A DNA stretch of 64,000 bases from Raillietiella orientalis (Eukaryota): assembly GCA_036172245.1 (NCBI GenBank), contig JAYWIR010000011.1, positions 2,108,001 through 2,172,000 on the forward strand. The letters are read 5' to 3'. The position numbers and the translations under genes are program-made. This document shows positions 32,601 to 60,785 of this stretch, piece after piece. Position 1 is the first letter of the stretch; every line of letters begins with the position of its first letter. The notes beneath the pieces are model-generated. The model was not told the origin of the DNA and did no database searches. It worked only from the letters and a program-made list of their open reading frames with translations.

Positions 32601-35600
32601 TTTTCCCTCCCCGTGGTTCTCAGACGAACGGCATGCCCTTAGTTCCCTGGCCGAAGGTCGATCGGAAAATCCTTTCCAACCTTTTTTGCTCAGTTGGGAG
32701 TCGCATTTCTCACCGAAAATTGGGTTGCGCGATATCCGTAATTCTCCTTGCCCTGCACTCCTCGTCTTCGCACCCTATCCCGAGTTCTTGCGATTCCCCG
32801 CGCGCGTGCACGGGTCCGTGGGAGCCGGGACTTTCGTACACCAAAGAGCAATTCCTGGGTCGTTTTCGCTCGCCTTTCCACTACGACGAGACCCCCTGTC
32901 TTGATGTGCCTTGGTGTTCGCCGCACTCCTGCCTCAGCTGCACACCTTGCAGTTCATACACACCGTGAAAAAACCACGGTTGGCGAATCTCGGTGCGCAT
33001 CGTGGGGAAACCCCATAGACCGGGCGAGTGAGGCACGAAGGAACAGACTGTAAGCTCGTTGTTCCTTATGCCTTCGTATACCGCAATGGATGCCGGCTGT
33101 CTTCAGATAGAAGCACACTTATCAGCGCCGATGCACACTGGAAAACGCCATCATCAAAGCATGTGTACCACCGACACTTTTTGGAAACACAAGTGATAGG
33201 GCTACTTATATTCTGGAAACATCCCCGCCTTTTCCTCCCTGCAAGCCTGTCATTACCTTTAGTTAGCAAAAGGTAATGACACTATTCATATGATACGAAT
33301 GAACACATTCAAGATGACGAATTCGAGAACATTCATGAATTCCCAAAGATTCACTTGAAAAACATGAATCAACAACTTTGAGAATTTGTGCGATTTTCAA
33401 GGTTCAATCTGCAGTCAATTGTTTTTAAATAAGTAGCACTTCGAGATCCTTTTTGTTTTTCTTTAAGAAAAAAAAAAAAAAAAAAAACGTAAAGCTACAT
33501 TTGGTACCTCGCATTCATCTTCGTATGCATGGTATATTCCATTGTGTCAAGCACTCTACCATCCACATCAGCTTGAATCGAGTGCCTTGTTGTAGAAGGC
33601 GTCGTTCGTGGAAACTTCCACGAACGATCATTGATTCAAGGATCACTGACTGACCGTTGAGGTCACCGACTTTATTGTGCCAAGTCAAGTGTTCCCCTGT
33701 CTTTCCGGTGAATGTTTCCAATGGCAATTCTTGCTCGAGTCTAACCAGGACTGCCTATGGTATGCCGAACGATGTGGCGTTTCCATTGTATGTGACATCC
33801 AGTGAAATTTTGACCTTAATTTTGCAGGTAGTTTCTCCACACTCTCTGTTCTTTCCACAATTCTTTGACACACCTCCCGGCTGAACACTCTTTTCGAAGT
33901 GACCTAGGGTCACATAGGCTCTAACAATGTTACATACGCAGCAGACCTTCGTTTTTCCTGATTTTTTGCCTTGCGATTCACCTGCCTAAACGGATTACTA
34001 GGTTTACCAACATATACTTCTGAATGGAGTTTGTAGGGCATCCGTCATAGCTAATTTTGCTCGGTGGCTTCTTCACAATAACCTGTTTGGGAGCTTCGAT
34101 TGCGAATGCTTCATGAACTAACTTTCCCCCCTTCCTCCAAGGATGCTGCGAGTCGGTGGGGATTGGAATTCCGTGAATGGTGGCGTTCCTTGCTGATGCT
34201 TGTTGACGAACTATTACATTTATTAATCACACCACAATGAAAAAAACATTAGTGTTGTTTAGTACTACTTTTGAGTTTATGACTAAGAATTTGAGTAAAT
34301 ACGTTGACAGGCGGAACCCAAATTCTTGTTCTAGTGTTCAGTTTGCCGTACAGCATTGAGAATTGGGAACAGTTGAGAGAAAAACCAAAATCAAAAAATA
34401 ATGATTTTTATTCTTCCACAAAGGTGAACGGTCTTGCATAGTCAGATGGGTGTCTTTCATGCATGTCTCAATGAGGTTAGTTCTTTAAATGTGGATAACC
34501 TACAAGGCATTCATCTGACTAAACAGATTAATCGATTTGGAAAAACAAAAATCTTTTTTTCAAAATTATTCTATTTTTGTAATTTTTGGGGCATTAAAAT
34601 GCTAAAGGTCTGATTTTGTAATTCTTTTTTTCAATAATCCCTTGTGACAAGGATTCTAATTCTATTGCTTAAAAGATGTAAAAAGGATTCCTTTGGATAA
34701 TATTTTCGAATTTCTGAAAAGCCATGTAAATGATTTTCAAAGCCAGACTTTTTCTTTTATGAATTAGGGCCCATTTCTCCCTCATCGATTATACAAAGTG
34801 GTGTGATCTGGGCAAAAGCAAATTCACTATCAAGATCATCTAATCAAGTCCTGATGCTATCTATTTGGGTCAAGATGGTAGCTTCATGAAACAACACAAT
34901 TAGGTAACATAAGATCTTGATCAGTTTCTTAAATAATAGTGACTATTTTATTGGTTATGTAATAGAAAAAAACAGATAACCAACCATTACAGCATCTGGG
35001 CAAAATGGGGATTGGTATGAAACAAATCAGTACTCAAATATCATGTGACATTAAAGATTTTGTACAATTCTTTGAAAGCGAATTCAGCATGCACAGAACT
35101 CTATGAATATGTGAATGCTCTTTTTGTTTTGTTCTTAGGATCAAGGATTGCTGAGATCTCAACCCAGATGCTATACATTATTTATATTCAGAACAACAAT
35201 TCAAGTCAAATTCATCCCCAAATATACTCCAAACTTGGTGTAATTAGAATCTTTCCTTTTATCTGTTGTACTCAATAAAATCTCGTCTGTCTCATGAACA
35301 GATTCATTGTCTAATGAATGGCACCAGACTGAAATGATGAAAGTACTTTAACAAACAAAAATAAATTCAAGTGCTCATGTACGTTTTAGGTATCCGCACC
35401 AGACTACGTAAATTTGTATTTCTGCATTTGGAATAGTTCTTCAGGCTTGAGACAAACAAATTCATAATAAAACTGAGAAGAAAAAATTAAGAAGGCTTAC
35501 AACTGACAAATGTTTGTTACACTAATTTTCCATTTCCTTCCTCCAAAGGAATAATCGTTCAATGAATGATTTCTCTAATTTATCATAAAGCTATATTGGC

Positions 35601-38600
35601 AAAAGTTTTTATTTTATATCTGGATTCTAATTTTCTCATAACAGCTAAAACTCCTTGAGTTCTTATATGATGACTTATATGATGCCATGAATAGTGCATT
35701 CAACAACACCGAACTTAATAGGAACAATCATAAATGAAAAATACAAATACTCCTTCTCCCATATCTAATTACAGTAATAGTAAATAAGTAATAGTCTTTT
35801 TCCTATGCATGCTATTTCGCCTGCCAAATTCCAAAGATCTCTACACCGTTTGCTGCCTTCGTACCTTTTAAGTCAAAGTAGTAAAAAATTGTTTTGCATT
35901 TTGAAAAGTTAACAAATGATCCTAAGGAGAAATAAGAAGGGTGCTGTCAAAACTTCAGATGAATAATTTCCTGGAATGTCTGCTGTGCTTTTGCTGTTAC
36001 ACTCATGAAAACTATAACCAAATCTTAATAAACTAGCTCAGTAATTACTAGACTGAATTATCCATACCATAAATACTTCAAATCAATAGATCTACTTCTA
36101 TCAGTAAGAATCAGCTCTCAAATACTCAAGATACTTTCATGTTCCGATCACACATGATTCATGCCAAAAGCATAGTCTACAACATGAAACAGTTAAACAT
36201 AAAACCAACTTTAGATAAAAAGAATCTAAAACATAATTATCAACTGCAACTCCATCTCTCAATGTAACTTGCAATGCATATCATTCCATTCTATGGAAGT
36301 TTCAAGATAATACAAGAATCATGCAACATCAATGCCCTCAAGAATACGGCTGCTTATCTGACAACTTAAGGAATTTGAATTTAAACCTTTTCACCTTTCA
36401 GTCCCCAAACAGTGTGCTGCAAAAAGAAAATTCATTCATAAACCATACACACTCATTGCTAAATGCAACAGTATGAGTATTCCTACTAATGAAGGATGTA
36501 AAAACCCTACATGTACATCCAAAACAAAAAACCCTAGAAAAATTATGAATAAACAAGACTACAAAAGGTTTTCCAGTTTCAACACCTGAAAAATCAATTG
36601 CTTTCCTTAATAGCTCAAAAAAAGGTCACATCTACTGGAAAAATACGATATAAATATGTAAGCTTACTGATCGAATTTTCTTGCTAACTACACATAACAA
36701 TTGTCAAATGGAAATCACCTTTCCCTGTATAAAAAAAATTGTTAGATGCAAAAATCATTCAACTTACTAATCATGCAATCATATTCCTTCTACACGAGCA
36801 GCAATGAAGCTCAGCTGTGCCATCATAGCATTTGCAGAAAACTACAATTAATCCCCTAACTTTCACACTCTTTAAATTGCCCAAAGCATTTCATTGAACA
36901 AATACTCAAACACAATGAACTCTAATTTATATATCCTAACAGCAAATGAGATAATGTCTACACATACATTTAAAGAAAGCATGCAGTAATCCTTAAAGAA
37001 TGGCAGTTGTAATCATATCTTGCTATGAAAATGGTCCATTCAAATGCATTCATTCAAACACTGAAACTTCAAGAAATTTACTTTTTAATTTCACAAATTA
37101 GTATCCTTTCTAACTTTATCCTTTTTTTTACATTTAGAGTTGAAATGAAATGATCATTCTGTAAATCGAAAATATCATCATCCCACTGCATTCCACTACA
37201 CCTCATCACCATTGCATCCATGCACTGATCTTAATTTTTGTATTGCATCTTAAAACTATAGTGTGTCAATTCCACCTATTTTCTCTCAAAATTATCAAAG
37301 AATTTATCATTTTCTCTTACACAAACTGCAAATCCCAAGAACCTACCCCACAATGAAACTCATTTTTCTAAAGCTCACATTGTCAAGTCATTTCCAATTT
37401 ACAAAACCTGAAACATTCTTCAGAAGTCCTCCACTACATAACATCTTAAGCATTGACTCACTTTTTCCTCACTTAGTTTCCATCAACAAATAAGTCTATG
37501 TTTCAAATCACTCTTACTGTTTCAGTTTAGTGACAAATTAGAAGTACACTATTGTCATTTCTCAATACCCTTGCATCTTTTAAATAGAGTAATGCAATGG
37601 AAACACATAAAACAAAAAGCTTACATTATGATCAGCTGAATCATTTTTTGTAAACAAAAATAATGCATTAAAAATATAAAACCTCATACATCCATGTATC
37701 CAATAGCACTTCTCATCCCTCGGTCTCCTTTTATGCCAGATTACAATAATGTTTGCAAGCTGTTCCTCTGACATATTGCTCCTGTGACCTACTTTGCCTT
37801 TATTTGGGTGTTCTGGACAAACTGCTGTGTTTTACAGAATACATATCCTTCACATTTTCCACAATATCAGTTAAGTTGGGTCAGAGATGACCATGTAAGT
37901 CTTTGACTATTAAAACCACTTGGCAAGGAATGCTTCATTCAGAATTTCAAACAGTTCTTGCATCATACTGTAGATTGTGTTACGTTGTTCATTTAAAACA
38001 TTTAAAAACTCGAGCTCAGCATATTCCACAAATTTCAACTCAGTTTATTCCTGGATTGTCTTTAGAACAACTGCAAAAACAAAAATCTTTCCTGCTACTC
38101 TTATGACCTATTGACAACAGATCTTTAACATGTAAAAGCAAAAACAAAAAACGGAGGGAAAGGAATGGCATCTCTTTAAACTAATTTTATTTAAAAATGC
38201 ATGAAAAATTGACGAGCATGACAGGAATGCAAAACACCATGATCGCACTCGCCTGGCTGCTTTCTTCAGTTGTGTTCTAAAAAAAATCTGTCTTGACAGC
38301 AACATGAGCTTTGAGGTTTTTTACTGGGTAGCACACACATAATGTTAAGCTAACAACAATCCTAATGACCTGCTAACAGCAATTTTGGCACATCCTTGAA
38401 ATGTAAATTTACGATCGAACATTCGGAAATTACAACAGAAAAATAGAAGCTTCCTTAAATTATGATGTCGTCTCACAAACAACCTATTTAAAAGCTGACT
38501 TTGCTTGGAAGGTTAATTGCAAGTTATAAATCTTTTCCTTATGGGAATGCATAGCACATTTTAGCAGTGACTTTAATGAATCACAAGAAAATATTTCATT

Positions 38601-39919
38601 CACAATTATGAAAACAGCATTAGATTTTTGCATATAGCATATTGTATTCATTGTTCACAAACATAACTATAATTAGATCTCAAAAGTAAAAAGACAAAAC
38701 TTCATTTTTCAAATAATCGTGAAATTGCATAACGGTAACTTTCATATCTATATTATTAATTTTTCGCATTCATTATATTTCACTTAACGCCTTGCAAGCC
38801 CACTTTACTCTCGCATACACCACAGCATATTATGACAAGTAATGCATAAAGCAAGAAGATAAACATTAGAAGTTGAAACCTATTCTTTATTTTTATGAAA
38901 GAAATGCGGATAATTCCCGGGATGAATAGAATCTCTTAAATCAATGAAATGCCGATAATTATGAAGACTGCTCACCAACTGAGTGTAATTTATCAACGGT
39001 AATTTACTGATAATGGCTACCATCATCACACATCACACATTTCAGACATCTACTAGCTTGATGTTAGTAATGTTTCTCTTATGCCATACTTAATATCCAT
39101 AATTCCATTTCTGGAGTAGAATTTTAAAAAAATTTTCTCATGAAAAAAATGTCAACATCAGTCACACAGAGAATTACGTACTCGAGTAATGAATCGATTG
39201 TGTGGTACATTATTTGGAAGTTTTTTTTTTTATTATTATCAATGCGGGATTAACATTGTCTAATCTTATAAGATTCAAATTCAAATCATGTTTTATTTTA
39301 TTTTATCATATATTAAAGTGTCTCAGTTTTTCTTTTAGAAACTCTAAATAAAATCAGACAAAAAGTCAGCCTACTAAGAAACTTCTATCAGAAAAGAATA
39401 ACCGCAAAATATTTATCAAATATCTTATAAACTGAAATCACAAAATCACATGAAATGCCATGGAACCAACAAAATAAGAAACAGAAGAATAAAAGAAAAC
39501 TGACAAAAGTAGACCTTCCTCCTCCTTCAATAACACCGCCGTATAGTGGCGCGACCGAAGAAGAGGAATAACAGGCAATGGAACTAGAAATGAAAGCAGC
39601 TACATCCGCTGCAGCGATCCATCTGGACAACACTCTTCTTCCTTGCCACCAGCAACTCGTCGAGACGATTCTGTGGAACCACCATCCGCCGCATCGACGA
39701 CAAGAGCAGGCTGGAGCATATGATCCACGTGCTCTGCAATCTGCATTTCGAAAGCAGGAAGATGAGGCAGGAAGCGTACTGGGAGCTGAACATCGAAGAT
39801 GAGGATGAACATCGTTCCCTCTGAGGGTACTGGGAACCAGTACGAGTGGTAGTACGCATCCCGCAACGTAAAAGGGCAGATCGGTATGCAAGAAAAGAAA
39901 AACATCGCCACCGCTGTCT

Positions 39920-41020
39920 TTGCAACAGAATTCGGACAGGAATTTCGGCACACGCCGGAAGGGATTACGGAGACGCTCCAAGACCGTTACATCACGTCAA
40001 GATCTGTGCCCGATAGAACAGCAGGTCACCCTGCAACGCCCGACGAAAAAACTTTCATACACATACAAAGAGGAATTGGGCATGGACATTTACTACGAGA
40101 GAGTCAAGAAGACGTTCATAGAACTGCTCAGAGACGTGATGGCAGGTGCCCATAGTGTTCCCATCTCGCACTATCAAAGATACCAGCACGCCTACCTGCG
40201 TCTGTTCCACGAATTGACTATCAGTATTCAAGAAGAAAAGCTTCCGGAGTCGTTTGACCAGAGTAGGATGCGGCTGCTGCCAAAAAGTGGCGATCTCAAA
40301 AAAGTCACTCAGTGGAGGCCCATCTCCATCTCGAATACGGATGCCAGACATCTGGCATCCGTATTCGGATGGCCTGAAGGTCCGGCCGTCATTGCTTTCT
40401 GTTACGCAGACATGCGCCGCGCCTGGACGACGCATGTCTGACAGCGTGAAGTGCACCCAGGCCACGATCGGCAACATCCGGTGCGTTGGTGGCATCCTGG
40501 TAATGGCATCCACAGACATAAGAGCACCATTCGACATTGTGGACTACAGGATATTGCTACGAATCCTGGAGAAGATGAACTTTCCACAGTACTTCCTGGA
40601 GTACATGCGAATGACCCTCAAAATTCCAATAAACAGACATGAGACGGCACAACCAGGACAGAAAAATGAATCCTTCAAGGAGTATGTGGGAGCTGTAGCT
40701 GTGTCGGTGATCGTTGACCTAAAAGTCAGCCTCCAAGGACTGACAATGGGAAACAACAATCTGACCCATCTAGCATATGCAGACGACCTTCTCTTCTTTC
40801 CTGACAGACAAAAAGGATCAGCACGCTTCCTTTCTGAAAGACGCATTTCCGGAAGTGCTCAATCAGGGGAAAAAAAGAACTGGGCCTGAAAATCAACGAC
40901 CAGAAGCTGCTTATCAGAATCCTGGATCACCCCACTAAAGTAAGAAAGCTTCCGAGTGGTAGATGAAGTCAAATACCTGGAAATCCCCATCGGAGGAACC
41001 TCGGCCTCGCAAACGTTGTG
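39920..41020 (+). mobile_element. Degenerate L1/Tx1-like reverse transcriptase pseudogene
   Basis: LPESFDQSRMRLLPKSGDLKKVTQWRPISISNTD; DIRAPFDIVDY..L..ILEKMNF; LAYADDLL; GLKIN; EVKYLEIPIG, spread over several frames. Confidence 0.85.
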
Positions 41021-41081
41021 AATGGATAATAAATCAGGGATAAGCTTGTTTTTTTTGTAAATGTAAAATGATAACGACAGA

Positions 41082-41405
41082 TTATGGACACGTTTTAGCT
41101 ACACCAAAATTCGTACCAAATAGTTAGACAGTGATATCGATGCTCCAAATGGTTAAGATGAGCCACACTGATGCATATATTCCCTGTGGCAGGTTATATG
41201 GGCATATCGATGAAGCATTTAGTAGTCCAATCAATAATACGATTCTATTCCCCTGAGTTAGGTTATACCATTCAAAAGGAAATAAAACTCCTATAGAAAA
41301 AATTAGTAGGTAAAACGACAAATCACGGAAGTATGTAACAAAAGCGAACATAAGCAGCATTACTATTGAAGGCAGTATTCTAATGACAAGATGACTATCT
41401 GCCAT
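41082..41405 (-). pseudogene. cdsA: Phosphatidate cytidylyltransferase, 5' part (Wolbachia-like)
   Basis: MADSHLVIRILPSIV...FEWYNLTQGN...LTIWSIDITV*LFGTNFGVAKTCP*; start overlaps the uppS stop; 3' half missing. Confidence 0.85.
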
Positions 41406-42020
41406 ATCCTTTGTCTCTTTTTGCATAATCTTCTAGTGCTTTACCCAAATCTTGACAAGAAGAATCAGACCACAAAGTATCGCAAAAATACAATTCAGCG
41501 CAGGCATAGAACTCAGCGCAGGCTGATTGCCATAACGGTGGAAAAAGGTCACTTTACCTTTTTCCACCCGTTATTGCGAAAATCCTAGTTTAGCAAATCT
41601 TTAGTTTACAGAAATTTTTCAAATTCCTCTTCTGATACACGAGCAATATTTCCTTTCATAATAGTGCTTACAGCATGTGTAATTCCTTGTTTCGCTCCGT
41701 AGCTGACCGTCACAGTAAGTATGAAATCGTTCTCAACTTGATGCTGTAATTGCACATGAAATTGATTCTACCGTCGTTAGTTCGTACATAGTAAAATAAA
41801 TCAAATAGATAGTTGGTTTCTTCTTTAGTCTAAGCCCATTCTCCATGGCAAATTCGTATAAAGTCGAGTACGGTGTGGCTAGAGCTGTGCAATGCTTAGC
41901 AATATCGAGTATGCAACCTCACTGCCCTTTCCATAACCATCAAGTTTTATCCTCCCTTGGTTGTTTGTCCACCGACCACTGTTATGCATAATGATTGCCA
42001 AGTGCTTTTGGTAATTTGCT
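41395..42020 (-). pseudogene. uppS: Undecaprenyl diphosphate synthase (Wolbachia-like)
   Basis: HLAIIMHNSGRW; VSYGAKQGI; SEEEFEKFL*TKDL; AELYFCDTLWSD...EDYAKRDKGYGR*; stops, frameshifts and an internal deletion near 41735. Confidence 0.9.
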
Positions 42021-42026
42021 TACCCT

Positions 42027-43671
42027 TCAGTGATTCAGTATATCCTTTTCCTTAGTGGATAATCCACTGTGAATCTTTTTGATATTGCCACCAGTAATAT
42101 TCTGTATTTTCTTCTTAGTACTATGAAAGTTATCTTCTGAGATTTCTTACCTCCCTGCATTTTTTCTATTTCTTCCATAACATCTCTACGTCTGTTTCTA
42201 ATGGCAACGCGCGCATTTTCAGCAAACCGGTGCCATCATTTCATTAATCTTTCACTTTCACGGGCTTCTTGCGTTAGATCTTGAAGAGTTTCACGTGTAG
42301 TGCTACCCTCGATAACAGGATTTAAATTTGAGTTAGCATTCAGCATAGCACTTTTTGCTTCATCTATGACGCATCCTCCGCCCGCGTCGGAAGCTTTGTG
42401 GTTAAGGCATCCGCGTGTGGCACCATGAGTCGCGGGTTCGAATACTCCGGCAGAAACTGACGCCACTGCGTCGTTGGGTTCCGAGTCCCTCCTGCAAGAT
42501 GGCACTGGTTGGCCGAGACATTCGGGATTGGCACGGTGGTCGTTTAAGTCGGAGGCCCCCGATGAAGACCGGAACAATGGGAGTCGACCTTCGACCTTCG
42601 GGTCCTTCCAGGAATCAAGGAGTGGGGAATTCCCCCTCCGGTCGTACAACGGAGAGAGGACCCCCCACACCGGGGGTACCCTTCCGGTTGGTTTCAACAT
42701 GGAGCAGAGACCTCACGGGCACCTCTCCTAGTTGTTCAGATGGAGCGGACCTCCCTTGTTGCTGGGGTGCCTCCGAGTCGTCGCCTCTTCACAGAGTGCA
42801 CAAGGAAGCAAGCGAGAGCGATTCCCTGCGGAAAGCTGCAGCGCCCCTTCTGAATTTCGGAAGCGTCCCTTCGGGGTTCTCTTCAGAGGAGTGAACAGGA
42901 GCGGTTCCCTTGCGGGTTCCCTTTGGAGAAGAAATTCCTACAAGCGGATCCTTTCCGGATTCCCTTCGGAGAAGTTGAAATGACAGCCCCCCTCCCCATT
43001 GGAAGGGGAAGGTGTCCCTCCGGAGAGAATGAGGAAGGAGATTCCCTTCGGGGTTCCCCTTCGGAGACAACCAGGGTAGGAGGTGCGATCTCCCCCATCC
43101 GGGGAGGATTCCTCCCCAAGCGTGAGAGGAACGGACTCCGAGCCCTTCCTGGATTCATAGGGCGGATCCACCCCTATCCCGGGGTGCCCCCTATCCTGAA
43201 GAATTACATGCTCCCCTGTGGATTGTCGCAGGAGAGAGGCGTGGAAACAGAACTGTGTTTGAAGAGCCAGTGCGCCGCGAGGCACGCGACCGGCTCTTGA
43301 GGCACACTTAGCGAACCAAAAAAAAGTAAACCCGAAGAAAACAAACAAACAAAAAAAAAAAAAACAGCGAAGACATGGCAGAAAAAGAATTTTCCAAGGA
43401 TTTTCCATCATCCAATAGTAAAGATCTCATCGCGGGGTCGCTACTGGCCTTTTAAATAAATATAAAAGATAAAAAAAAATGATACGTCCCAAACTTTAAT
43501 TAACGAGGTACTGAAACAATTTTTGATGCCCGCCATAGATACTCACAATTCTGCCATCAAGTAATGATGGCATGAACTCTGCCGGTGCGTGTACTTTAAT
43601 ATCATCATGGAAAGATACTGAATAGTTTTTAGCATCCTTTCCTTTGTTTTTGTTTTCACTCCATTCAACAT
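42027..43671 (-). pseudogene. frr: Ribosome recycling factor (Wolbachia-like), split by a 1.1 kb host element
   Basis: 5' half 43671-43480: MLNGVKTKTKERMLKTIQ...IKVWDVS; 3' half 42370-42027: VIDEAKSAMLNANSNLNPVIEGST...FAENARVAIRNRRRD...KEKDILNH*. Confidence 0.92.
42371..43479 (+). mobile_element. Long tRNA-headed non-coding SINE-like element with cUUCGg hairpins and A-rich tail
   Basis: A-box-like aagctttgtgg; tRNA-His-like ccgcgtgtggc; B-box ggttcgaatac at 42435-42445; CTTCGG at 42596, 42869, 42964, 43046 and 43059; ends aaataaatataaaagataaaaaaaaa; both ends are defined by the two frr halves. Confidence 0.85.
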
Positions 43672-43681
43672 AAATTACCTA

Positions 43682-44403
43682 TCATTCATAATCGGAAACT
43701 GCAGTGTAAGTACCACAGCCCTTAACGACGTTGATCATTTCGCCTTCTTTCAGAGGAAGAACTTGAATTGGAACGGAATTCTCACGCGCAAGTGGGATCG
43801 CTGATGCATCCATAACTTTTCAATCACGAGTCAGCAAATCCATGGAAGAAAGCTTATCGTACATTACAGCATCCACAATTTTATTTTTCGGATCGGCGGA
43901 GTATACACCGTGTACTTGGGTACCTTTTAAAATCACGGTTCCTTTCAGCAGCAAGTACAGCTGCAGCCTTATCTGTAGTAATTACCTGCACCTGCCGCAA
44001 AGATCACTACTCTTCCTCTTTATAAATGACGAACGGCTTTTCTCCTTATACAAGGCTCGCGTGTAGTGGCCATGGGTATTGCAGACAGCACTCTAGAGTC
44101 TACTAAATTTTTCTCTGCAAGTTTTTGTAAAATCAAAGCGCTGGTTACAGTGGCAAGCATTCCAATATAATCACTTCTTGCTCTTCCACAACCACTTGAC
44201 GATGCAGATGCACCACGAAAGATATTGCCGCCACCACCAGCAACGCGTATCTGAAGTTCGAGCTTGTGGACATCAGCTACATCTTTGCACAGTTGATCTG
44301 TGACCTACACATCATGACCGTAAGGCCGTGATCCAATCGAAACCTCGCCAGAGATTCCAAATAACACTCTGGAGTATTTTACTTTAGCTGCTGAGGCAGT
44401 CAT
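43682..44403 (-). pseudogene. pyrH: Uridylate kinase (Wolbachia-like)
   Basis: MTASAAKVKYSRVLFGISGE...GGGGNIFRGASA...SDYIGMLAT...[22 protein letters not shown]...[15 protein letters not shown]...GTYTAVSDYE*; internal stops and frameshifts. Confidence 0.95.
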
Positions 44404-44413
44404 TTTCAACTAC

Positions 44414-44628
44414 TTAATCTCTGATACCTAAAACAAGCGACATATAATCAGGCAATTGAACACCAGAGCTTAAATTTTATTAGCTTCAACCCTTATAAAA
44501 TTCTGTTCTAATAAAGCAACTCCTTCATAATATTTAGGCCATTCGACTATCTACTGTTTTTTTTTTTTTGTGTGTCGCTTCAGGTTTATGTAATCTTTTC
44601 ATTTGTTCTTCAACTATAGAGCGTTCAG
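44414..44628 (-). pseudogene. tsf: Elongation factor Ts, 3' fragment (Wolbachia-like)
   Basis: ERSIVEEQMKRLHKPE...KYYEGVALLEQNFI...LVLGIRD*, directly upstream of pyrH as in the conserved operon. Confidence 0.85.
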
Positions 44629-44699
44629 CCGATATTGGTTGAGTTACTTCATTATATTCCCCCCCCCCCCTTCCCTTGTTGTCCGTAGGCCTCCTGAGT

Positions 44700-45045
44700 A
44701 ATGGGAACTAATATAGAATTATGCAATAAACACAAAGAAAATATGATTAACAACAATTCACTGATTAAAGGTAGTGCAAGGCACAGATCTCCGCAAAAGC
44801 AGTCTTTAGGAGGAAGATGGAGAAATGCAGTTCCCGAGTTGTTGCTTGGTGCTGTGGGGACCACACTGCCTCCAATGGGAAATTGCATCTGAAACTGCTG
44901 CCATTGGAATAGTGGCAACGGCTACGTTACCAGGAATTGCTGGTATCGTGATCGGTTGCCTAGCGGGGTATCTTGTTGCCGAAAAAGATAAATCAATGCC
45001 GCGGTAACCAGCAACATGCAGCATCTCAGCCTCTAGCGTGTAGCG
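44700..45045 (+). pseudogene. Possible fragment of a Wolbachia-type membrane-anchored hypothetical protein (C-terminal hydrophobic helices)
   Basis: IASETAAIGIVATATLPGIAGIVIGCLAGYLVAEK; lies inside the nuwt; family not recognised with certainty. Confidence 0.4.
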
Positions 45046-45109
45046 GAATGTCGATAAGCCTTTAGTTATGGCATAAAGACCACAAAGGTCACGCAAGACA
45101 ATAAACGGT

Positions 45110-45970
45110 GAACCAACCTTGTTTCAAACAGAGTGCCCATGTGCTCCGTTTGCCTTAGGAATTCACGAAAAATCCTATTCCTTTGGCCGTCGCTCGCATT
45201 TTTCATCGAAGACTGCGTTCTTTCTTTTAGACCAAAAACTCATAAAAATTCTCCTCTCCGATTCAAAATCTCGCGATCTACGCTTTTTAATGAATCTCGC
45301 AACTCCGGAAGATTCACAAGAGCAGCAATACCACCATCACCAACATCTTCAAGAAGATTTGCATATTTATGATGCTTTACCGATCGCAGAGTGCTCTTAT
45401 ACGCAGGATATACGTAGACATAATCTATAATAAAAGCGGCTCCTCTATTATTGTAGATCTTCTCAAGTCTTTTCAATATTTCAGTTCCAGCTGGTCGTAC
45501 TTCCACTACTGCACCATCAAAAAGTATTCCATTTGCCATCTGAGTAGCTGATGCTGGAAAACACCATTCCTTTTTTTCCTGGATTCCAGTGTCAAGCACG
45601 GAAGTGACACTGAGAGGCTGCCATTATCCTCTTTTTGTTATTCAATTTTCATGCCACTTTTAATACGATGTGCAAACGGATCCATAGGAAGAGCGTCAAA
45701 AAACTCATTTGCTACTATTTGTATTTTCGTGCCAGTTAATATCTGGACCCTTTAATCTTTCCCTTTGTATCTCCTGTAAAGCAAGTGGATCGACGCTGAA
45801 TCAAAACAGTATTCTATTTTCTAGTCACTCTAATTAAAACGCGAATCAGTGTTCATTCACCAGGCCAAAGTTCAACCACAAAAAATTTTGATGGCTTTCC
45901 GAATTTTTCACATCCATGCATTACCAAAACTCCAATTATTTCACCAACTAAGTGACTGATTACGCGTGCA
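45110..45970 (-). pseudogene. SAM-dependent methyltransferase, MidA/NDUFAF7 family (Wolbachia-like), 5'-truncated
   Basis: SHLVGEIIGV...GKPSKFFVVELWPGE*TL; ANEFFDALP; GAAFIIDYVYVYPAYKSTLRSVKHHKY; IAALVN; HMGTLF. Confidence 0.9.
45536..45610. repeat. Wolbachia palindromic element remnant inside the methyltransferase gene
   Basis: catctgagtagctgatgctggaa ... ctggattccagtgtcaagcacggaagtgacac resembles the recurrent Wolbachia repeat arms (ctggattccagtgtcaagcactggaatgaca, recalled). Confidence 0.75.
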
Positions 45971-45984
45971 ATTTTTGTTTTATT

Positions 45985-46400
45985 AGGTTAATTAAGCAGA
46001 TTGCATGGAATGCCAACGGATAATGCAATCAGCCCTTGGGTTGCATAACCCCTATTTCCAGATATTCCATTTTATCTTGATACTCGGGGGTATGCTAATG
46101 CATTATTTGGAACCATATCTGGCTTTACCACAAGAAGTGTATTCAAATTATAAACTGTATTTAGTTATCTTGAAAAGCAATCTCCAGGAATAATGCATGG
46201 TATACGTGGCTTTGGTATGATTACTAAAGGTATAGCTGTTCTTCCCATGCTAAGGGAAATGAATCCAAATGATATTCTGTAATCTGAACTTTCAGAATCT
46301 GAAAAACGAAGCTTACAAAACACGTAAAGTGTAGCAATTTCTGCTACGGAAGTATATTATGGCCTAATTTTTGTTATGCATATTCTCCTATTACCTAATT
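45985..46400 (+). pseudogene. trkH: Trk potassium uptake membrane protein, internal fragment (Wolbachia-like)
   Basis: LFPDIPFYLDTRGYANALFGTISGFTT...LEKQSPGI..MHGIRGFGMITKGIAVLPML...VYYGLIF; in-frame stops. Confidence 0.8.
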
Positions 46401-47112
46401 CAACGCTATGGGGAATAGTGAGAACTTGGAATGAAAAAGGATTCTGGTGCAACGATCCAAATTTGCCCTGCAGAATTGATCTTGCTCCACACCGTTCACG
46501 AAAATGATCAACAGGCTGTTTCCTCTGCAGCTCCTTCCCCAAAGCGGTCTTTCCGCCTCCCTCCTCGGAGACCATACTCGCTGAGGCAATCCGTTCCCCT
46601 TTACACCCCATCCGTCTGGTGCACGGTAGAGCTCTTGCGCACCCCCGTTCCGGTTCACCGTCGGTTGCAGCGCACTTCAACAGCCCCTATTCCCGACGGC
46701 ACACTCCTCGCGGCCAGGCAGCCCACGATCCCACTTGCAGCCTTCGTTCGCCTGCCCACGGCGGGCAGCGCAATCTTCCTCCACTTCTTCCCAATGTCCC
46801 TTTTCCCATGCCCGGCTCCCTCGAGAAGTTCACAACCGTCCCAAAGAATGCCACGTTTTCTTCAAATGTCTCCTCCTCGGACCACGCTACCCAGCACCGG
46901 GCATCCACCAACTTGACCGTCTCCTCAAGACAAGACGGAACTTCGACGTCGCTCGCTCAGCAACCTTCGATCACGGAAGTCCCTCCAGCCTGCATGCGAC
47001 CTCCAGTCTCCAATCTCTTTTCCATGGTTTCTCTTTGGAATGAAGTTTTGCTTTCCAATTGCGAGGCAGCTAGCACTTTCATAGTGAGAAGCGAGAAGTT
47101 AGAAGTGAGAAG

Positions 47113-47889
47113 ATGAGTTCGAAGGACCGCGGCTCAGTTGGAACGAGCGAGGACTGCAAGACGGAAAGGCCGTCCTATGAGGAGATTGCTTGTCGCGCAT
47201 CGACCCCGGGGGCGGAGGGGTCGTGCGCGCATTGGGGACTGGATCTCGAGGAGCTGCCTTGGATCGACGAGGACGAGGGCCACGTGCAGATCGATCTGTG
47301 CTCCGGCGTGCCTGGAGAGGCCTGCGGCACGTTCTGCTCGGCCGGCCCGTCTTCCTGCACGTTGGCCAAGAGAATGCCTTCGGCTACGCAGGAGGTCCAC
47401 CCGATTGAAACGGGTCCGTGTGAGTCTGCACCCGAGTCGCCCATCCCGCATTCATCTTCTGGGCAAGGTGAGAAGGTACTTTTCCTGAATCCGATCTGCC
47501 CGCACTGTGGAGAAGCGTGGCTGGACCAGGAAGCAAACAGGACTCCGGACGCCTTCGTTGTCCATGCCGGGCCCATCTGTCTCCTGGTGGGAGTCCGTGT
47601 CGGCCCATCTGAGCCCGAGCACGTGCCGGCGGGAGTCCCGCTCGCCGAGGGCTCGCCGTCCTTGGAGGAGGGCGTGCGCGCCGCACACGGCGGTGCTTGC
47701 CAGGAACCAAGCTGCTCCGGAACGGGGGCCGTGAGCCGCTTGGAGTCGAGTGCCAGCGGGAATGCCAGCGCGGAAGGCTCGCACCCTGCTGACAGCGCCC
47801 CGCTCTACCCAAAGGCCAAGTCCAGGATCGGAAATTTTTTCCGTAGATTGCTCGTTTGCGTTGCTCCACGGCGTCGCCGTAGGAGATGA
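47113..47889 (+). CDS. Uninterrupted orphan ORF, 258 aa; acidic, Ser/Pro/Cys-rich, with a basic amphipathic C-terminus
   Basis: True ATG with A at -3; candidate splice acceptor tttcatag ending at 47084; TGA at 47887-47889 followed by AATAAA at 47893-47898; CPHC motif; ends KSRIGNFFRRLLVCVAPRRRRRR. Confidence 0.55.
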   Translation: MSSKDRGSVGTSEDCKTERPSYEEIACRASTPGAEGSCAHWGLDLEELPWIDEDEGHVQIDLCSGVPGEACGTFCSAGPSSCTLAKRMPSATQEVHPIETGPCESAPESPIPHSSSGQGEKVLFLNPICPHCGEAWLDQEANRTPDAFVVHAGPICLLVGVRVGPSEPEHVPAGVPLAEGSPSLEEGVRAAHGGACQEPSCSGTGAVSRLESSASGNASAEGSHPADSAPLYPKAKSRIGNFFRRLLVCVAPRRRRRR

Positions 47890-49597
47890 ATCAATAAATT
47901 CCTATGAGAAATGGATCAGTTCCAATCTCCTGTTGGTGGGGTATGCACGAGTGCACGTTGCCTTGGTTTGGTGGGCGTGAGCCGGAGGAGAAGCTCCATC
48001 GAGTGCACGTTCGCACGGAGATCTTTCTCTCGAGCCCATCAGTGGATGCGGCTGCTCGATGCTGTCCTGTAGGGACGCGCTTCTGACAACGAAGGCAGAA
48101 GGAGCCGTTGACCATGGAGGAGAAGTAGGTCGTTCCCACAGCTGAAGACCCATCTTCTGTGGACCACTGACGTGGAGTCGAGCCGCACTCTACGGACTGC
48201 GAATTGCTTGGTGTCCTGGTGCAGAGTTCGTCACCGCGCACGTTCTGTGGAGAAAATCGAACCCTCTGCAGGATACATCCAATGCGGGCTCGCCGCGATG
48301 CAAGGGGTGGTGGTGAATGGCGCACAATCCCGGTCCAGATCCAGATGGATGAAACAACGGCTCGACTGCGGTTTTCGGAGCACCCGCGTGCATTTCGCCA
48401 ACGCCAAGAGAAGACACCACATGATGACGGAAATCCTTGCGTTTGGGAAGGCGTCGATTTCCCCGCCTTTCCACGTGCTGTGGAGGACTCCTGGTAGTAT
48501 GCGGAGCTGGCGCGGCTACGGGGCTCTTGGCTGTTCCGCGGCCATCCAGTGTCTGCCTCATCATCTTCGGAATAGCCCGCATGGCAGGGCTGCGTACGAT
48601 TCTTCCAGGAATGCGTCGGAAGGACTCGCCTTTCCAGACGTTTCCTCAACGGGGACCGCTCTCCTCCCTCCCGGGAGCTTTGGGGCCAAGACCACGGACG
48701 GGCATGCGCGATTTCTTCGCGCCGTCTCACCCCATTTCGGACTCGGACGTCGCTGCTTGAGGCTGCCAAAGCCGAGATGGCTCTTTGGGAGTTCCACTTC
48801 CCTTTGGAAAATCCAGCTCCGTGGCAGTCGCGCGTCTCGAAGGAACAGTGGAATTACTGTATTTAAATGTTGAGCACATAAAATTTCAATAGGATTTGTT
48901 TTTAAAAAATAATAATATGATAAAACCTTTTCAGAGAACACGATTTAAATAGAATGCCCAAGTGTGGCCTTCACAAAGATTTTAGAGAATTCTGCTAAAC
49001 ATTGATAAATATGGGCTGCATGTTCATTTAGAAGATTTTCATGTAAGGCTTTGTTGAAGAATGCTTCTTTTCGGATACTTTTGTAACTGAAGCTGTAGTT
49101 CCGAGCAATCGAAAAATTGCACTTTCCGATTTTGAAACCTTTGCTTGAGTAGACTGAATGGATGATAAATATGATGATAAAGTGATGCTTGTAATAGCGA
49201 TACGAGCAAAGAATGTAAGTACTATACATTACATCAAATCAAGATATCCATATGAATAAGTCTTTGAGGATAAACTTTTATGTGAAAATTCACATGAAAT
49301 CCTATTCCTAGGAATGGGGATGATATAATGGATTCCAAAACAGTGTTCTAATTACCATAAAATTACCATATTTTATACCATAAGTTATTTTATCAATCTG
49401 TTGATCACTTTTGACATGCATATTTTGTGGATTATTGATTGGATTTTCAATCAGGTAAATAGAAAATTCTTCTAGGATGATCCTTTATTTTCGTGTGTGG
49501 AAGTGAGTGGTAACGCGTTTAAAAAAAAATAAAAAATTGTAAGCAGCTGTAATGAAGGTTTTGTCCTTGTAAGGTCTCGGATTCTCGCTTTCACAGT

Positions 49598-51760
49598 ATG
49601 GAAAACATGGAAGAGTTCATTGTTCTGGATAAGAATGATTCAGGAATTTCAATTTCTGAGAATTTCGATGGCAGCATGATAAAGGATCTTTTGCAGCAAT
49701 TTAAAATGCTATATGAAGAAAGATTGCAAGAACTTGAGGACTCTGCTGATGAGAATGGAAACAAGGTAATTATGCTTTATTATTGTATTACTAGTATACT
49801 TTTCATTTGAATTACAAAGATTTATAAAATGTGGTATTTTAAAGCTGAAAATGGAAGTATTGAAATCATGGATTAGAGATTTGGAAGACCAGAATCGTTT
49901 GTTGTGCCGAACCTTAAATTCTTTCGAAAATGAAGCAATCGAAAAAGTTTATCTTTTAGAAAAAAAGTTAAAATCGGCCGCTTTAACTATAGAACAATTT
50001 ACGGAAAAATCCAGTAACTATGAAAAACAGATACAGCGTTTGACAATGGAGAAGCTTAAATATGAACACGCTTGTCAGGTATTTCATTTAAGCATCAATA
50101 ATGACTGCACCAAAACTGGTAATATTTTATAATGTAAACTCTTGTGCAGATATGATATTTCTATATTAGTGCTATGCCGTCTTGTGATATTAATACTATT
50201 CTCAAATGAGTAAAGTGTAATAAGTAATGCTAGCCTAATCATTATGTTACATATTTTTTTCTTTTGCATATGAGCTTCTGATTTTGATGCAACTTGTAGG
50301 TTATTGAAGAAAAAAATAAAAAGCTTGCTGAGTACATAGTGACAATTCTTCAAGAGAATCCTTGTAATTTGGAAAACATTGTGTGGCCAAAGAAAAATGC
50401 CAACACCACATCAGAAACAACAAGAAGTCTTCCAAATATTTTGGGCCATAAGTAAGTGTGTTGCATGATCTTTGGAGATTTAATTCCATTCTTTAGATTA
50501 GGTTTATTCACTGCGCAGCAAATAAATGCATTGAAGATAACCAGATTTGGTTCTGATCCTCTGATTCATTTTTCTGAAGGGAATAATCAGGTACTTTTTC
50601 ACCTTGAACATGGCAGTTGTTTTTATTGATTATTCTGTTGGATATTTCTTTTAGATAGCCAAAGACCTAAAACCTGGTAATTGCTGTGCAGACTGTAAAA
50701 TTAAGTTAAGGTTAGTATTGCATGGTCATTAAAGTGTTGATGAAGTAGAAATGGTTGGTGATTGTTACAATAGACTAATATGCATGCATTTAAGCACATG
50801 ATTTACTTTTCAGAAAGAAAGAGTTTATGGTCACAAAATACTCCGAGTGCTGCCTTAAGGTAGGAAAAATGAATTCAATCTAGTTGTAAATTGAAAATTA
50901 TGAATCCTAAAATCATTTGAGCATTTGATCATATTTTGTTTCTTTCTTTTCTGTGTTCGATTTTGTGGTTGGTATTTTGAGATGTTTGTAAATTGACTTA
51001 TTGTGTACAAATATAGTGTGTGTAGTACATTGTGTAGTACTTTGTTTAACAATAATTTTTTTAAACACCATTTGACATGATATTAGAATAGTTTTTTTTT
51101 AGCATATGGTAGAGGACCGTGATTCTCTTATTGCAAGCATAGCAAGACAGTATGAAGTTATCAAACATTTAAAAGCAAAGTTCCAGAAACAGAAAGCTCT
51201 CAGAAAAAAACTTAAATTTGGATTCCATAAAAACTCTTGGGATTCTCAGAGTGATGTCAAGAAGCTTTCTTGTCACTTGGTTGATAGGGTAATCTAAGTA
51301 AAACTGTATTGTTCGGAACTGTTGTTTGTTAAGCAGACACATAAAGAAGTGCAGACAGATGCAGTGCATATGTGCACAGAATATCAAAATGAAGTATGTA
51401 TAGGAGTAGGTTGTTTCAGTTTGGTTCATTGTAGTGCAGATGTTTGCAACAGAAGAAAACAAGCTCCAGTTTAGGAAAACTGGTGGCAGTGTAGAAAATC
51501 CTTCTCATGAAACTCTGAATTTATTTCCACATAATGTATCAAACAGACATCAGGTGCTTCAAAATGAACAGTTGTCATCAGATTTGCTCTCAAGAGACAA
51601 ACATATATTGAACGAGGTGAAAGAAAACCGTAGTTTAAAGCGTTGTTCATTATTTTTATGTTTCCAGAACCTTAAATTTGCAGAATCTTTGCCCAGGAAA
51701 TTATCATTGGAAACTCAGCAACATACAAAAGCAAAGGGCCTCTCTCTTTCCCAGGATTAT
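49598..51760 (+). CDS. Coiled-coil protein, 5' exons (multi-exon, short AT-rich introns)
   Basis: Phase-consistent GT-AG exons 49598-49765, 49845-50078, 50300-50451, 50497-50590, 50655-50710, 50814-50859, 51103-51288, 51440-51616, 51668-51760; heptad-rich LLQQFKMLYEERLQEL..LKSWIRDLEDQNRLL..ENEAIEKVYLLEKKL. Confidence 0.8.
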
Positions 51761-52799
51761 GTAAGTGCACTATTTAATAATCAGCATCAAAATGCAAGCT
51801 TTTCAGAATTCCCTTGCATTTGCAGTTTGTAGATTTAGATGTGATATTGGGAAGGGAGGGCATTCTGCTGCATCTGCCTGCTCTACTAACCTAGTGTTCC
51901 TAGATTGTTATAACAGCATGTTATTGTTCAATAAACCTAAATATATAATATGTACATTTACTAAATGTAGTACTGTGTCAGTTTAATTAAACTTTCAACA
52001 GTAGTTCAAAAATTTCCCAAACTTGATGTCCAAATCGATTTTTACCAACATCTTGCAAGGACAAATTGTTTGCGACTTATTACTATTTTTAAGGCATTTC
52101 AGAATTTCAGTGTATTTGGCTCTTAAGATAAGGACTTACTCGAAATCGTTGTTGTATTTTTCTGTTGTCTGCCCTGGTATTTCTCTCCTTAAAATTCGTG
52201 TTTATCCCCACATGGGTTGTGCATGCATCGCATTGCACAAGGTCACGCAAAGTGACTTTGAAACCTCACCAAGCAGTAAGGATACTGCAACTGGGAACGA
52301 TTTCAAATGTGAAGGTTTCGTTTCGTTGAACGCAGTTGCACGTGCAACGGAAAGTGTTCCCATACCGAAGCTGGAAGATTTTCAAGTTCCAAGCCAAGTT
52401 CGGTTTTGAAAACGCGTGTTCACGAGGGATGCCTGTCTGGATCCTCGGGAAGAAGCACACCGTAACGAATGAGCAGCCTCGATTGAAATGAAAAAATTCC
52501 CTCTTCGGGCACCTTGCTTAGCAGGTCTTCCCCTTCGCTCCCGTCCTTTCGATCTGAAACCTTCACGTGGGGACAGCTCTGGCAATAACGAAATGTGCCA
52601 TCCTGGAGCAAGCAATCTTTGCATATCGTCGTCCCCTGCCGATGAATGAAAACGGATGAAAACTTCCTGATGATGCGTTATTAGAAAACGCTAGGACCAG
52701 GATGTGGTCAAGGACCTATCATGGTTCAAAACGGAACGAATCCTTCCAAGTACGAACGCTCATTTAATTTTTGCTGAATCTCACGAAGGTTCAGAGCTC

Positions 52800-53450
52800 G
52801 AGTGGACGGGCGCTGGCTATTTCCGGGCAGTGGGCTTTGCCCGCCCTCATTTGTTCTGTTTTTGTTTTCGCCTTCAGGTTTCGAGAGAGAAACAAACCAA
52901 ATGTACGTTTCCATGCGGTGGATCTCCTTATTAGGCGGAGGTTGCGTTGTACGAGCCCTGCGGGTTATGTACATGGATGATGTGACAGTATTTGAAAAAG
53001 ATATAAAATGTATCCGTAACGTTATGACAGTGCGAACATATTTGTTGTTTCGCTTTAAAACAAAAACGTCAGGTGTGTTTATTATTTAACTTGAAGTGTG
53101 CCAAAAAAAAAAAAAATTGGAATTTTGTTGGTATTCAGTAAATTCAAAGAACTCTGCAGTTGCGCCGTTTCATCCACAAAAGTTGGACAGAAACAGAATT
53201 CAGCCTTCTTCGTCACGTGGTCGTGTTCTTTCAAAACAAAAAAGAGCTGCCAGCTCGCAATGTACCGCAAAAATAAGCTCACAGTTTATTTACAGAGTCG
53301 TACGGAACGGGTTTACCGCTTTTCACCAGGGCTGTGGTCACTTTTTTTCGTCACCGTGCACGCTGTACAGAAACCTACTACTGTACGTGTGTTTCGGAGC
53401 GCGGAGCGGTGTTGAGTACACACATCGAGACTGGCTCTGGACAGCGTATT
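52800..53450 (+). mobile_element. Degenerate L1/Tx1-like RT fragment (probably intronic)
   Basis: GSGLCPPSFVLF (decayed QGCPLSP), GGG..V..MYMDDVTVF catalytic motif, later HRDWLW. Confidence 0.6.
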
Positions 53451-54105
53451 CGCATATTACCGTGATTGCCTCCGGCGTATATGAAAACATACGTGTAAAA
53501 GCTTCGCCGTCAAGAAACGAGAAAGGAAACCACTCATCCTCGCGGACTAGGCATGAATCTGTTCATTTCTGTATTTGTACACCGTAATGAAGAAAGTGTC
53601 CTAAAGTCTTGCTGGGTGTCTTCGAGGTCTTTTCTTTTTTTCGGTTTTATTCCTTATTCTCACGATGAACCAACCTTATGCTAGTTAAATGTTCCTGATG
53701 ATAACGACATGCTCGTTCAGCGAAGCCTTTGCTATTCTTTACCAAACTTTGAATTCGTGATGAGGAGCATCGGGATGCCAAGTCTCTCCGTTCACTCCAC
53801 ACTCTTCAAACTCTCTCCCTGTTCACTCCTCCTGTTCGACACAAACAGGCGACATCAGAATCAGCCTGCGTCTCAATCAGTAAGACAACTACTGTATTAG
53901 GATAAATTTTCTTTCTTCTGGGGACCGGTGACTGTCGGTTGGATTTGTGTTCGTTTTTATGGAAGCCACTTTAGTGACCACTGCTCATCACCATCTTACA
54001 TTTCAACGGTCGTCTAATCCGAACATCATCTAAGAAAGGTGGAGCAATTGCAAAAATGAGAAAAAGAAAATGGTTTTCCGTATCTTCACGCCAACCGTGA
54101 TCATA

Positions 54106-54141
54106 CACAAACTAGGTTATCAACCGATAACCTAGTTTGTG
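54106..54141. repeat. Perfect 16-bp inverted repeat with a 4-nt loop
   Basis: cacaaactaggttatc-aacc-gataacctagtttgtg. Confidence 0.9.
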
Positions 54142-55980
54142 CCACGCCATCTTGTTGCTGGATGAAATCATCCTCGGTGGAGTTCTCCGAGCTTGATGAT
54201 TTTTTAACTTCTAAGTCCAGAGGAAAGTCTTCGCCTGTGCAGCCACCATTCAGTTAGTGCCTTGACAGGAATGAACGAGAGCTTGCATTGAAAGCAATAA
54301 GAGTGCTTGCCGGTGAAGCAAAGGTCCGCACCTTTGCTTCACCGGCAAGGTCTTCACCTTTGCTCTCCTGCTCCTCCAGGGTCCGGAACCCTGCTGTTGC
54401 CGCAAGCTCGATCAGCAGCAACCAAAGCAAACGCGGCCGAATGCATTTGCTGCTTGTCTGGTTCGAAGGGATGGCCCAGGGAGAGCTGCATTGGTTCCGG
54501 CCGAGGTTGCTGGCTCTGCTGCCAGGCTGGGGTCAGCTAAGATCGGCGAAGATGGCGAATGCCGCTCTCAGCTCTATCAACGCCCTTCTACCCTTACGCG
54601 GGATAGTCTGGAATCGGTCACCGGCCAAAAAGGGATGCAAAGGAGTGGTCGGTTCTTTCTCTCGCATCTTCCCTCCTCCGGCTTGCTGGTTGCCAAGCAG
54701 CAGCAGCTCTGAGGTCGCGGTCCAAGGAGCCGGCTAGCTGTGCGGGTATATGAGGCAGCAGTCTTTCCCACTTGCGCGGTCGGATCCCATCGCCTTCCTG
54801 TAATGTGGTCTCTCCTTCGTTGTTCCCGGCAGCTTCGTTTCGAAGGAGACTGCTCCTGCCTCATCTTTTCCCGTTCCTCAACTGCAGGACGCCGCCTCTG
54901 GTGCGTTCCATACGTGAGAAGGGAGTGCTGTTCTCCGATGGGACAGCCGCTGCATCTGATGGGGGGAGTTGCAAGATGGCGGCGCCGTCCTCATCGGAGC
55001 AGTAGCTCCCGTTCCTCTCTCCCCTTCCGGAAACGGCGTCCTGAGCTGTGAAGGGGAAGCGACCCCTCGATCTCCCCGTTGCACCCCCTGGGACAACGTG
55101 TGCTGTCTCTCTTCCGGGAGAGGGGGGGGGGGACCGTCGATCAACTGCCCTTTCGCCCCCTTGGTAACGCAGCCTCTTGGGAACTTTGGCAGTCGACTCG
55201 ATTTAGTGGCGGCGGCGGCATCGTTTCGAGGTTCCTGCCGCGTTCGGTGATTGGGAGGGTGGGGCGGGAGGGAGAGCGAGCGCGTTCCAGGAAGGAGGGG
55301 GAAAGAGGCAGGGTTTTCCGGGTTTTCGCGGATTCCGTGCCGTGACCATCGGTGCTGCAGGTTTCTTCTATCTCCTCCAGGGACTCGCGTGCGGCGGAGG
55401 GGGGGAGGAGAGGAGGAGAGAGCGCATCCGTGAGCGTGGGAAGAGGAGGGAGGGAGGGTGGCAGCTGACTTGCCGTCCCCTCCCTCCCTCCCCGCTTTGC
55501 TTGGCTCGGTGCTTCCTTCGGATGCCCCCTCGCGTGCCGATAACACTTGGGGAGGACGGCCTCCTTCAAGCTCCTTGCTCACCCATCCCCTCCTGCCGCC
55601 GTTCCTTCCTTTTTCCCCGGTTCCTTTCAGCGCCTCCTTCCCGTAAACAGCAGGCGGGCGCCGCGCCTCTGAGCCGGTGGGACGGGGCGAGGGGAAGACG
55701 AGGACAAGGGGAGAGTTTCCTCCTCCCTCTCTCCCTGGGCCGCCCCCCTTCCACCTACCCATCGGTATTGGTGTCGGCCTGCGGGTGCAGCCGGGAGCGG
55801 CAAGTCCGCGCGTGCCTCATCCCATCAATCCCCTTCCGCTTTCGCTCTCATCCCTGCGCGTCTTCCCGGAAACGCCCCACGCCTCAGGCGCGTGCGTCCG
55901 ACGGACGTCCTACCATCTTCTTCCCTCGTGGACCCCTCTGCTCCGCGCCACCCGCTCACCTCCGCTCATCCCTCTTCCAG

Positions 55981-60500: not shown

Positions 60501-60785
60501 ACTGTGAATCTGCCTTCACTTGTCTCACTCTTGCCCCCACCACAATCACACGATAAGGAGTTCTCGGCGTTTTACGACTGAGAACGTCATGCTCGCCGAG
60601 GCACTGGCTACTTGGGAACGTTCCAAAGTTCATCAACGTGCTTTTGGACATTTGAAGCATGTGAAAAGTCCCTTGAAAAACTTTTCATGAATCGCAGCAC
60701 GTACTTTCTGACAGCTTCACAGAGCTGAGCAGTTCGGAACCAATGAGTCACTGGACCATTCTGTACACATGCAAGTAATCGCAGA

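Follow-up and report, generated by a model that had tools for sequence, protein, structure and literature searches.

A decayed 5.3-kb insert of probable supergroup F Wolbachia origin, interrupted by a retroposon-like repeat, in a 64-kb stretch of eukaryotic DNA

The DNA stretch presented above, 64,000 nucleotides long and hereafter called the window, contains a 5.3-kb insert (41085-46397) that is very probably a nuclear Wolbachia transfer (NUWT) from a supergroup F donor, decayed without function in a eukaryotic host genome. The insert consists of collinear blastn matches to the Wolbachia genomes G286 and G353, with a best DNA identity of 81-82%. Since E-values went down to 0, chance similarity was excluded. 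Wolbachia genomes were reached by an order-wide search with a Wolbachia PyrH followed by a genus-wide DNA search, and all of the 60 genomes covered by the latter matched the insert.

The coding content was determined by tblastn with the proteins of G286, the reference open reading frames (ORFs) in the corresponding stretches of G286 and G353 having been named by NCBIfam and Pfam. Eight gene remnants were found: cdsA, uppS, frr, pyrH, tsf, an ankyrin-repeat ORF, a MidA-type methyltransferase and trkH (Table 1). Seven of them had been described as broken bacterial genes in an earlier note on this DNA, and blastn and tblastn placed them at nearly the same coordinates, while the ankyrin-repeat ORF had been missed. 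Every gene of the insert shows a truncation, a frameshift or both, and most are split over two or three frames, the longest stop-free frame at 41080-46400 being 127 amino acids (aa). Pfam analysis of 11 minus-strand frames of the insert gave matches for three; AA_kinase was detected with an E-value of 0.0071, short of the curated cut-off. Methyltransf_28 was detected above the cut-off in the 127-aa frame (E 1.3e-10) and with an E-value of 5e-62 in the reference ORF.

Of 5079 candidates in a search with the 94-aa pyrH frame, 4619 proteins matched at E <= 0.001, and all the named proteins among the best 57 were Wolbachia uridine monophosphate (UMP) kinases, the best having identities of 77-78%. 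The symbionts of Mansonella ozzardi and M. perstans supplied the top matches, which are 77% identical to the frame. The Wolbachia origin proposed earlier was thus upheld, the best matches being to Wolbachia at both the protein and the DNA level, and two blocks of the insert were placed within or next to the supergroup F clade, as described next.

Phylogenetic trees were made of two of the six blocks, C and E. In the block C tree (46 rows, 1152 columns), which was rooted with the loci of G347 and G395 (66-67% identical), the window falls inside a 10-row clade with a support of 100/100, and further within starred sets of 7 and 6 rows. In the block E tree (31 rows), the window is sister to nine genomes of the block C clade with a support of 99/97. 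The PyrH proteins of clade members are 100% identical to named proteins of the Wolbachia of Mansonella ozzardi, Menacanthus eurysternus and Meromenopon meropis, and the strains wMoz and wCle are treated as supergroup F in the literature (PMC10195089). Since both block trees agree, the donor is assigned from these alignments to supergroup F, with the window inside or beside the F clade. The earlier note had proposed that phylogeny would provide a supergroup, and F is the one obtained.

The branch leading to the window is long in both trees, 0.20 in block C and 0.25 in block E versus median end branches of 0.026 and 0.022, respectively. When 2085 coding sites invariant in five live F genomes were examined, the window differed at 278 of them. 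These changes are spread evenly over codon positions 1, 2 and 3 (89, 102 and 87, corresponding to rates of 0.124, 0.139 and 0.137; chi-square p = 0.70). The same five live genomes vary at 58, 44 and 141 sites over the three positions. The window changes comprise 82 synonymous, 187 non-synonymous and 9 nonsense substitutions, the nonsense changes being those of the operon part alone, and 19 indels were counted in blocks A-C, mostly not a multiple of three. This pattern bears out the long neutral decay claimed in the earlier note. A ratio of non-synonymous to synonymous rates near 1 had also been expected; the values are 0.76 for transitions and 1.54 for transversions, the latter being based on just seven synonymous transversions. 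Regarding direction, 190 changes go from AT to GC versus 66 from GC to AT, and blocks A-E are richer in GC than their G286 counterparts by 1-6.5 points, block F being poorer by 1.8 points. All genes of the insert are dead and evolve without the constraint seen in live bacteria.

The arrangement of the pieces is that of a mosaic. In G286, the gene order is rpsB-tsf-pyrH-frr-uppS-cdsA, and blocks C, B and A of the window follow it collinearly on the minus strand, indicating that they form a single collinear piece. The bacterial order tsf-pyrH-frr-uppS-cdsA recognized in the earlier note is therefore that of a real Wolbachia locus. About 0.75 Mb separates this operon from blocks D and E in G286, where these two are 4.3 kb apart and in a relative orientation opposite to that in the window, and block F is found a further 0.46 Mb away. 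In the window, blocks E and F abut with a two-base overlap. Since the ankyrin, methyltransferase and trkH pieces are not neighbors of the operon in the reference genomes, the insert is not one collinear piece but draws on four or more donor regions. Within the methyltransferase remnant, the segment 45530-45617 matches many dispersed sites in most Wolbachia genomes, with identities up to 94%; it is a small Wolbachia repeat carried in with the transfer.

The frr remnant is interrupted between codons about 74 and 75 by a GC-rich, retroposon-like repeat. Its 3' tails are A-rich, it contains short repeats internally, and a B-box-like motif (GGTTCGAATAC) is seen near its 5' end. None of the 60 Wolbachia genomes contains a match to this repeat, and no second copy was found within the window. 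In a public sequencing run, X1, whose relation to the window is given below, the repeat shows the highest word depth of the part compared (17.3 and 8.0, values that are not copy numbers) and 14 listed joints, which suggests a multi-copy element with variable internal repeats.

The course of events very probably started with the entry of supergroup F Wolbachia DNA into the germline genome of the host. The donor fragments would have been joined either at integration by end-joining, as occurs with mitochondrial inserts, or through later deletions and inversions. After integration, a host retroposon-like repeat would have landed in frr. Neutral drift would have followed, in which a strong AT-to-GC bias brought the insert closer in composition to its surroundings.

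Table 1. Blocks, gene remnants and adjoining features of the Wolbachia-derived insert (positions in the window)
Feature	Positions	Strand	Content or extent	Evidence
Block A	41085-41731		cdsA 5' part and uppS 3' part	blastn, 80.4% identity to G286
Block B	41732-42372		uppS 5' part and frr 3' part	blastn, 81.0%
Block C	43517-44627		frr 5' part, whole pyrH, tsf 3' part	blastn, 81.6%
Block D	44714-45022	+	end of ankyrin-repeat ORF	blastn, 72-85% (G286, 942.5 kb)
Block E	45023-45969		MidA-type methyltransferase	blastn, 75-79%
Block F	45968-46397	+	trkH aa 61-198	blastn, 74.7% to G286 and G353
cdsA remnant	41085-41405	-	aa 1-112 of 208, cut at left junction	tblastn 72%, E 1e-44
uppS remnant	41398-42007	-	aa 12-234 of 234, frameshifted	tblastn in two frames; blocks A and B; indels
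frr C-terminal remnant	42030-42372	-	aa 74-185 of 185	tblastn 70-77%, two frames; Pfam RRF E 8.4e-5, below cut-off
Retroposon-like repeat, GC-rich (54.5%)	42373-43484	+	1112 bp, within frr	G286 alignment breaks at 42372 and resumes at 43485
frr N-terminal remnant	43485-43671	-	aa 1-75 of 185	tblastn; G286 alignment resumes at 43485
pyrH remnant	43685-44409	-	aa 1-245 of 245, two frames, nonsense changes	tblastn 74-77%, E 1e-89
tsf remnant	44417-44635	-	aa 209-289 of 289; 31-bp deletion	tblastn E 2.6e-9; end of block C
Filler with poly-C run	44636-44712		unassigned, between tsf and ankyrin remnants; the filler between blocks C and D measures 85 bp	no blastn match to reference loci
Ankyrin-repeat ORF, C-terminal remnant	44713-45023	+	aa 150-239 of 240, three frames	tblastn; Pfam Ank/Ank_2 on reference ORF
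MidA-type methyltransferase remnant	45024-45969	-	aa 49-350 of 356, three frames	tblastn E 1e-78
trkH remnant	45968-46397	+	aa 61-198 of 490, ends at right junction	tblastn 58%, E 6e-39; NCBIfam TrkH on reference ORF
LINE reverse-transcriptase remnant, decayed	39872-41060	+	left flank	Pfam RVT_1 E 3.5e-4, below cut-off

X1 was the sole public run listed, sharing 13% of the sampled words, and no RNA run was among the runs listed for these words. Contigs of X1 were placed at a likeness of at least 90%, and those over the left flank and the insert parts reach 90-99%. Among the listed records, those over the left flank (36.5-40.2 kb) differ from the window by 2.6-4.5% of letters and those over the insert parts 41082-41465 and 41760-42083 by 2.5-4.2%. 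Word depth, which here too is no copy number, was 3.8-5.5 over 40.8-42.4 kb versus 6.0-8.7 over 36.5-40.3 kb, that is, of the same order. The nearly nil cover of X1 at 43.5-48.8 kb was not counted as evidence. Since the divergence of flank and insert is similar and the depths are of the same order, these data weakly suggest that the genome behind X1 is a related one with an orthologous copy, in which case the transfer would predate the split between the two.

The surroundings of the insert are compositionally uneven. GC-rich blocks (60-69% GC) are interspersed with islands of 32-45% GC, and the insert sits in one such island. On its left side stands a decayed long interspersed nuclear element (LINE), for which all 10 of the 10 best family-bearing matches in Atlas share family or clan with the best one, RVT_1; the right flank is GC-rich DNA. 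The observed/expected (o/e) CpG ratio is 0.8-1.1 over most of the window, insert included (0.8-0.9 in the insert region), with drops to 0.17-0.46 between 34 and 38 kb and to 0.22 between 50 and 52 kb, where TpG/CpA is in excess. The AT-rich blocks at 34000-38500 and 49000-52000 have 32-34% GC and opposite GC skews (-0.33 and +0.22). By their composition, the AT-rich CpG-depleted blocks are probably gene bodies, and they may be methylated genes that are transcribed divergently, the insert occupying the spacer that separates the two. On the same grounds, the insert would lie in an unmethylated-looking intergenic region. From what is generally known of DNA methylation, this CpG mosaic fits an invertebrate with gene-body methylation. 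The CpG o/e values argue against a vertebrate carrier, which was rejected on these grounds.

The search for further Wolbachia-like DNA was extended to the rest of the window with five F-clade genomes. None of the five matched 1-20000, 19900-26100 or 26000-41100, and in 46300-64000 three of the five matched just the final 95 bases of block F. An origin from additional Wolbachia DNA was considered for the islands of low GC at 34-39 kb and 49-52 kb and rejected, with none of the five genomes matching there. A 29-base match to G279 at 63347-63375 (97%, E 3e-5) is probably due to chance or low complexity.

Contamination had to be considered because samples of arthropods and nematodes often yield Wolbachia reads when sequenced, so that a contig of a live Wolbachia could have been wrongly joined to host contigs. 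This explanation would agree with the fact that none of the listed X1 contigs bridges either junction, 41085 or 46397. Nevertheless, five essential genes are truncated, frameshifted and hit by nonsense changes, with changes even over the codon positions, and live relatives have end branches about 8-30 times shorter than that of the window; moreover, pieces from 3-4 distant places of the donor genome abut within 5 kb. The non-Wolbachia repeat in frr, the retroelement-bearing flanks and the absence of any N from the 64-kb window all but exclude a live-symbiont contaminant, as the earlier note had maintained, and a wrong join of such a contig is scarcely credible. A domesticated transfer, in which one or more pieces are expressed and serve the host, has precedent in the functional Wolbachia-derived genes reported from some hosts, and the unmethylated-looking CpG ratio of the region would be in line with it. 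However, even the longest stop-free frame covers just an internal part of a 356-aa protein, none of the eight genes has escaped truncation or frameshift and the substitution pattern is neutral, which makes domestication very improbable.

Two further readings concern the carrier. The DNA might come from a second eukaryote present in the material sequenced, be it a parasite, a parasitoid or a prey species, in which case the NUWT would be real but its host a different one. The unusual composition, with 60-69% GC blocks beside 32% GC blocks, could be read in this way, but the 64 kb are gap-free, the independent run X1 contains a related copy of both flank and insert and nothing points to a second organism, so this origin is improbable. 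Another reading starts from a carrier lineage that is not known to host Wolbachia, or is now free of it, and takes the insert as the fossil of an old "hit-and-run" infection by supergroup F that predates the X1 split, given that the divergence from X1 is a few percent in flank and insert alike and the insert branch is 0.20-0.25. This is a tentative proposal, judged rather unlikely; if true, the insert could serve for dating supergroup F and the jumps it made between hosts.

Several observations weigh against the interpretation as a decayed NUWT in an animal genome, or against parts of it. Besides the unbridged junctions, one X1 contig follows the insert only as far as 41082, its next 23 letters differing from the LINE flank of the window, and the left junction may differ between the window and the X1 genome. 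The plain pairwise ratio of non-synonymous to synonymous differences (pN/pS) versus G286 is 0.45, not 1, a crude value that includes pre-transfer divergence and ignores a 2.7:1 transition bias; it compares with 0.10-0.20 among the live genomes. The target-site duplication of the frr repeat is weak (ATGACGC / ATGATAC, 5 of 7 letters). Since ARAGORN found no tRNA gene in the window and Rfam (E up to 1) no tRNA match at 42300-43600, a tRNA origin of this repeat is unsupported and it cannot be called tRNA-derived. Regarding the host, Pfam found no credible host domain in the 379 stop-free frames of at least 75 aa outside the insert, in which the only matches were the weak RVT_1 and two at noise level, and homology searches with the LINE reverse-transcriptase frame and a coiled-coil exon frame found nothing. 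The spliced animal genes that the earlier note had placed on both sides of the insert were accordingly left unconfirmed, and we infer an animal chromosome from the retroelements, a U4-like fragment, plausible exons and the CpG patterns.

Other features of the window were recorded outside the insert. A match to the U4 spliceosomal RNA at 2805-2886 on the minus strand scored 51.7 bits versus a gathering score of 46 and covers 82 bases of the 138-position model, so it is probably a truncated or deleted copy. On the plus strand, coiled-coil-like open frames starting with MENMEEF occur at 49598-50070, 50300-50360, 51103-51210 and 51410-51620; these frames, at 49.6-51.8 kb, may be exons of a host gene. 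Neither a Pfam match nor a homologue was found for them, and Atlas gave just generic coiled-coil clusters. Two GC-rich open stretches on the plus strand, 57198-57293 and 57404-57510, are bounded by AG and GT and separated by 110 nt, which would be an intron, and the first one starts with ATG; they look plausibly like exons of a second host gene. At 60747-61067, also on the plus strand, lies an ORF remnant with a PD...D/E...K-type pattern like that of the restriction-like endonuclease of R2-type LINEs. It is matched by 474 library proteins at E <= 0.001, and since its best named relatives come from turtle, dragonfly and barnacle at about 40% identity, this ORF gives no host signal. The sole internal repeat pair of the window is 7749-8003 / 9711-9952 (76% identity over 267 bases), and no telomere-type repeats were found in the window.

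If the insert is a supergroup F NUWT, as we consider very probable, it shows that Wolbachia of this supergroup once lived in the germline of this lineage, and, together with the identity of the host, it could help in dating this association and in uncovering an infection since lost. It also provides neutral sequence for measuring the mutation spectrum of the host, which here has a strong AT-to-GC and transition-rich bias. In addition, it is relevant for assembly cleaning, as filters removing "bacterial" sequence would cut out a real piece of this chromosome.

The mosaic structure resembles that of organelle inserts of the nuclear mitochondrial DNA type, in which distant donor fragments are joined head to tail with short filler and are then interrupted by host repeats. 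The donor here is a bacterial symbiont, unlike an organelle, and end-joining at integration is in this case a proposal drawn from the arrangement of the pieces. Among transfers from Wolbachia itself, NUWTs are described as neutral genomic fossils that are assigned to donor supergroups by trees, with average sizes of 0.4-2 kb and a longest example of 29 kb in filariae, and with fossils from supergroup F noted both in filariae and in the strongyle Dictyocaulus viviparus (PMC12693587). Wolbachia fossils in a lungworm are also reported in another paper (PMC4046930). The present insert is like the filarial and D. viviparus NUWTs in being a short, non-functional, neutral nuclear fragment whose donor supergroup, again F, is given by phylogeny (PMC12693587). 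Unlike the nematode hosts, the window has blocks of 60-69% GC and strongly CpG-depleted AT-rich blocks suggesting mosaic methylation. Such a composition does not fit what is known of nematode genomes.

Wolbachia fragments are also on record from insects. The grasshopper Chorthippus parallelus is reported to have Wolbachia insertions from supergroups B and F (PMC4675112), and it shares with the window a supergroup F donor and Wolbachia fragments in an arthropod-type host genome. On the other hand, no link of that host or those genes to the window was seen: a term search of the paper for uridylate kinase, ribosome recycling, undecaprenyl and potassium found none of them (PMC4675112). In the woodwasp Sirex noctilio, which is free of Wolbachia, degraded remnants of Wolbachia genes comparable to those of the insert have been taken as the record of an earlier association (PMC8962096). 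Compared with all these systems, the insert is a further example of the well-documented NUWT kind and no new kind of thing, and it differs from known NUWTs only in its compositionally unusual carrier.

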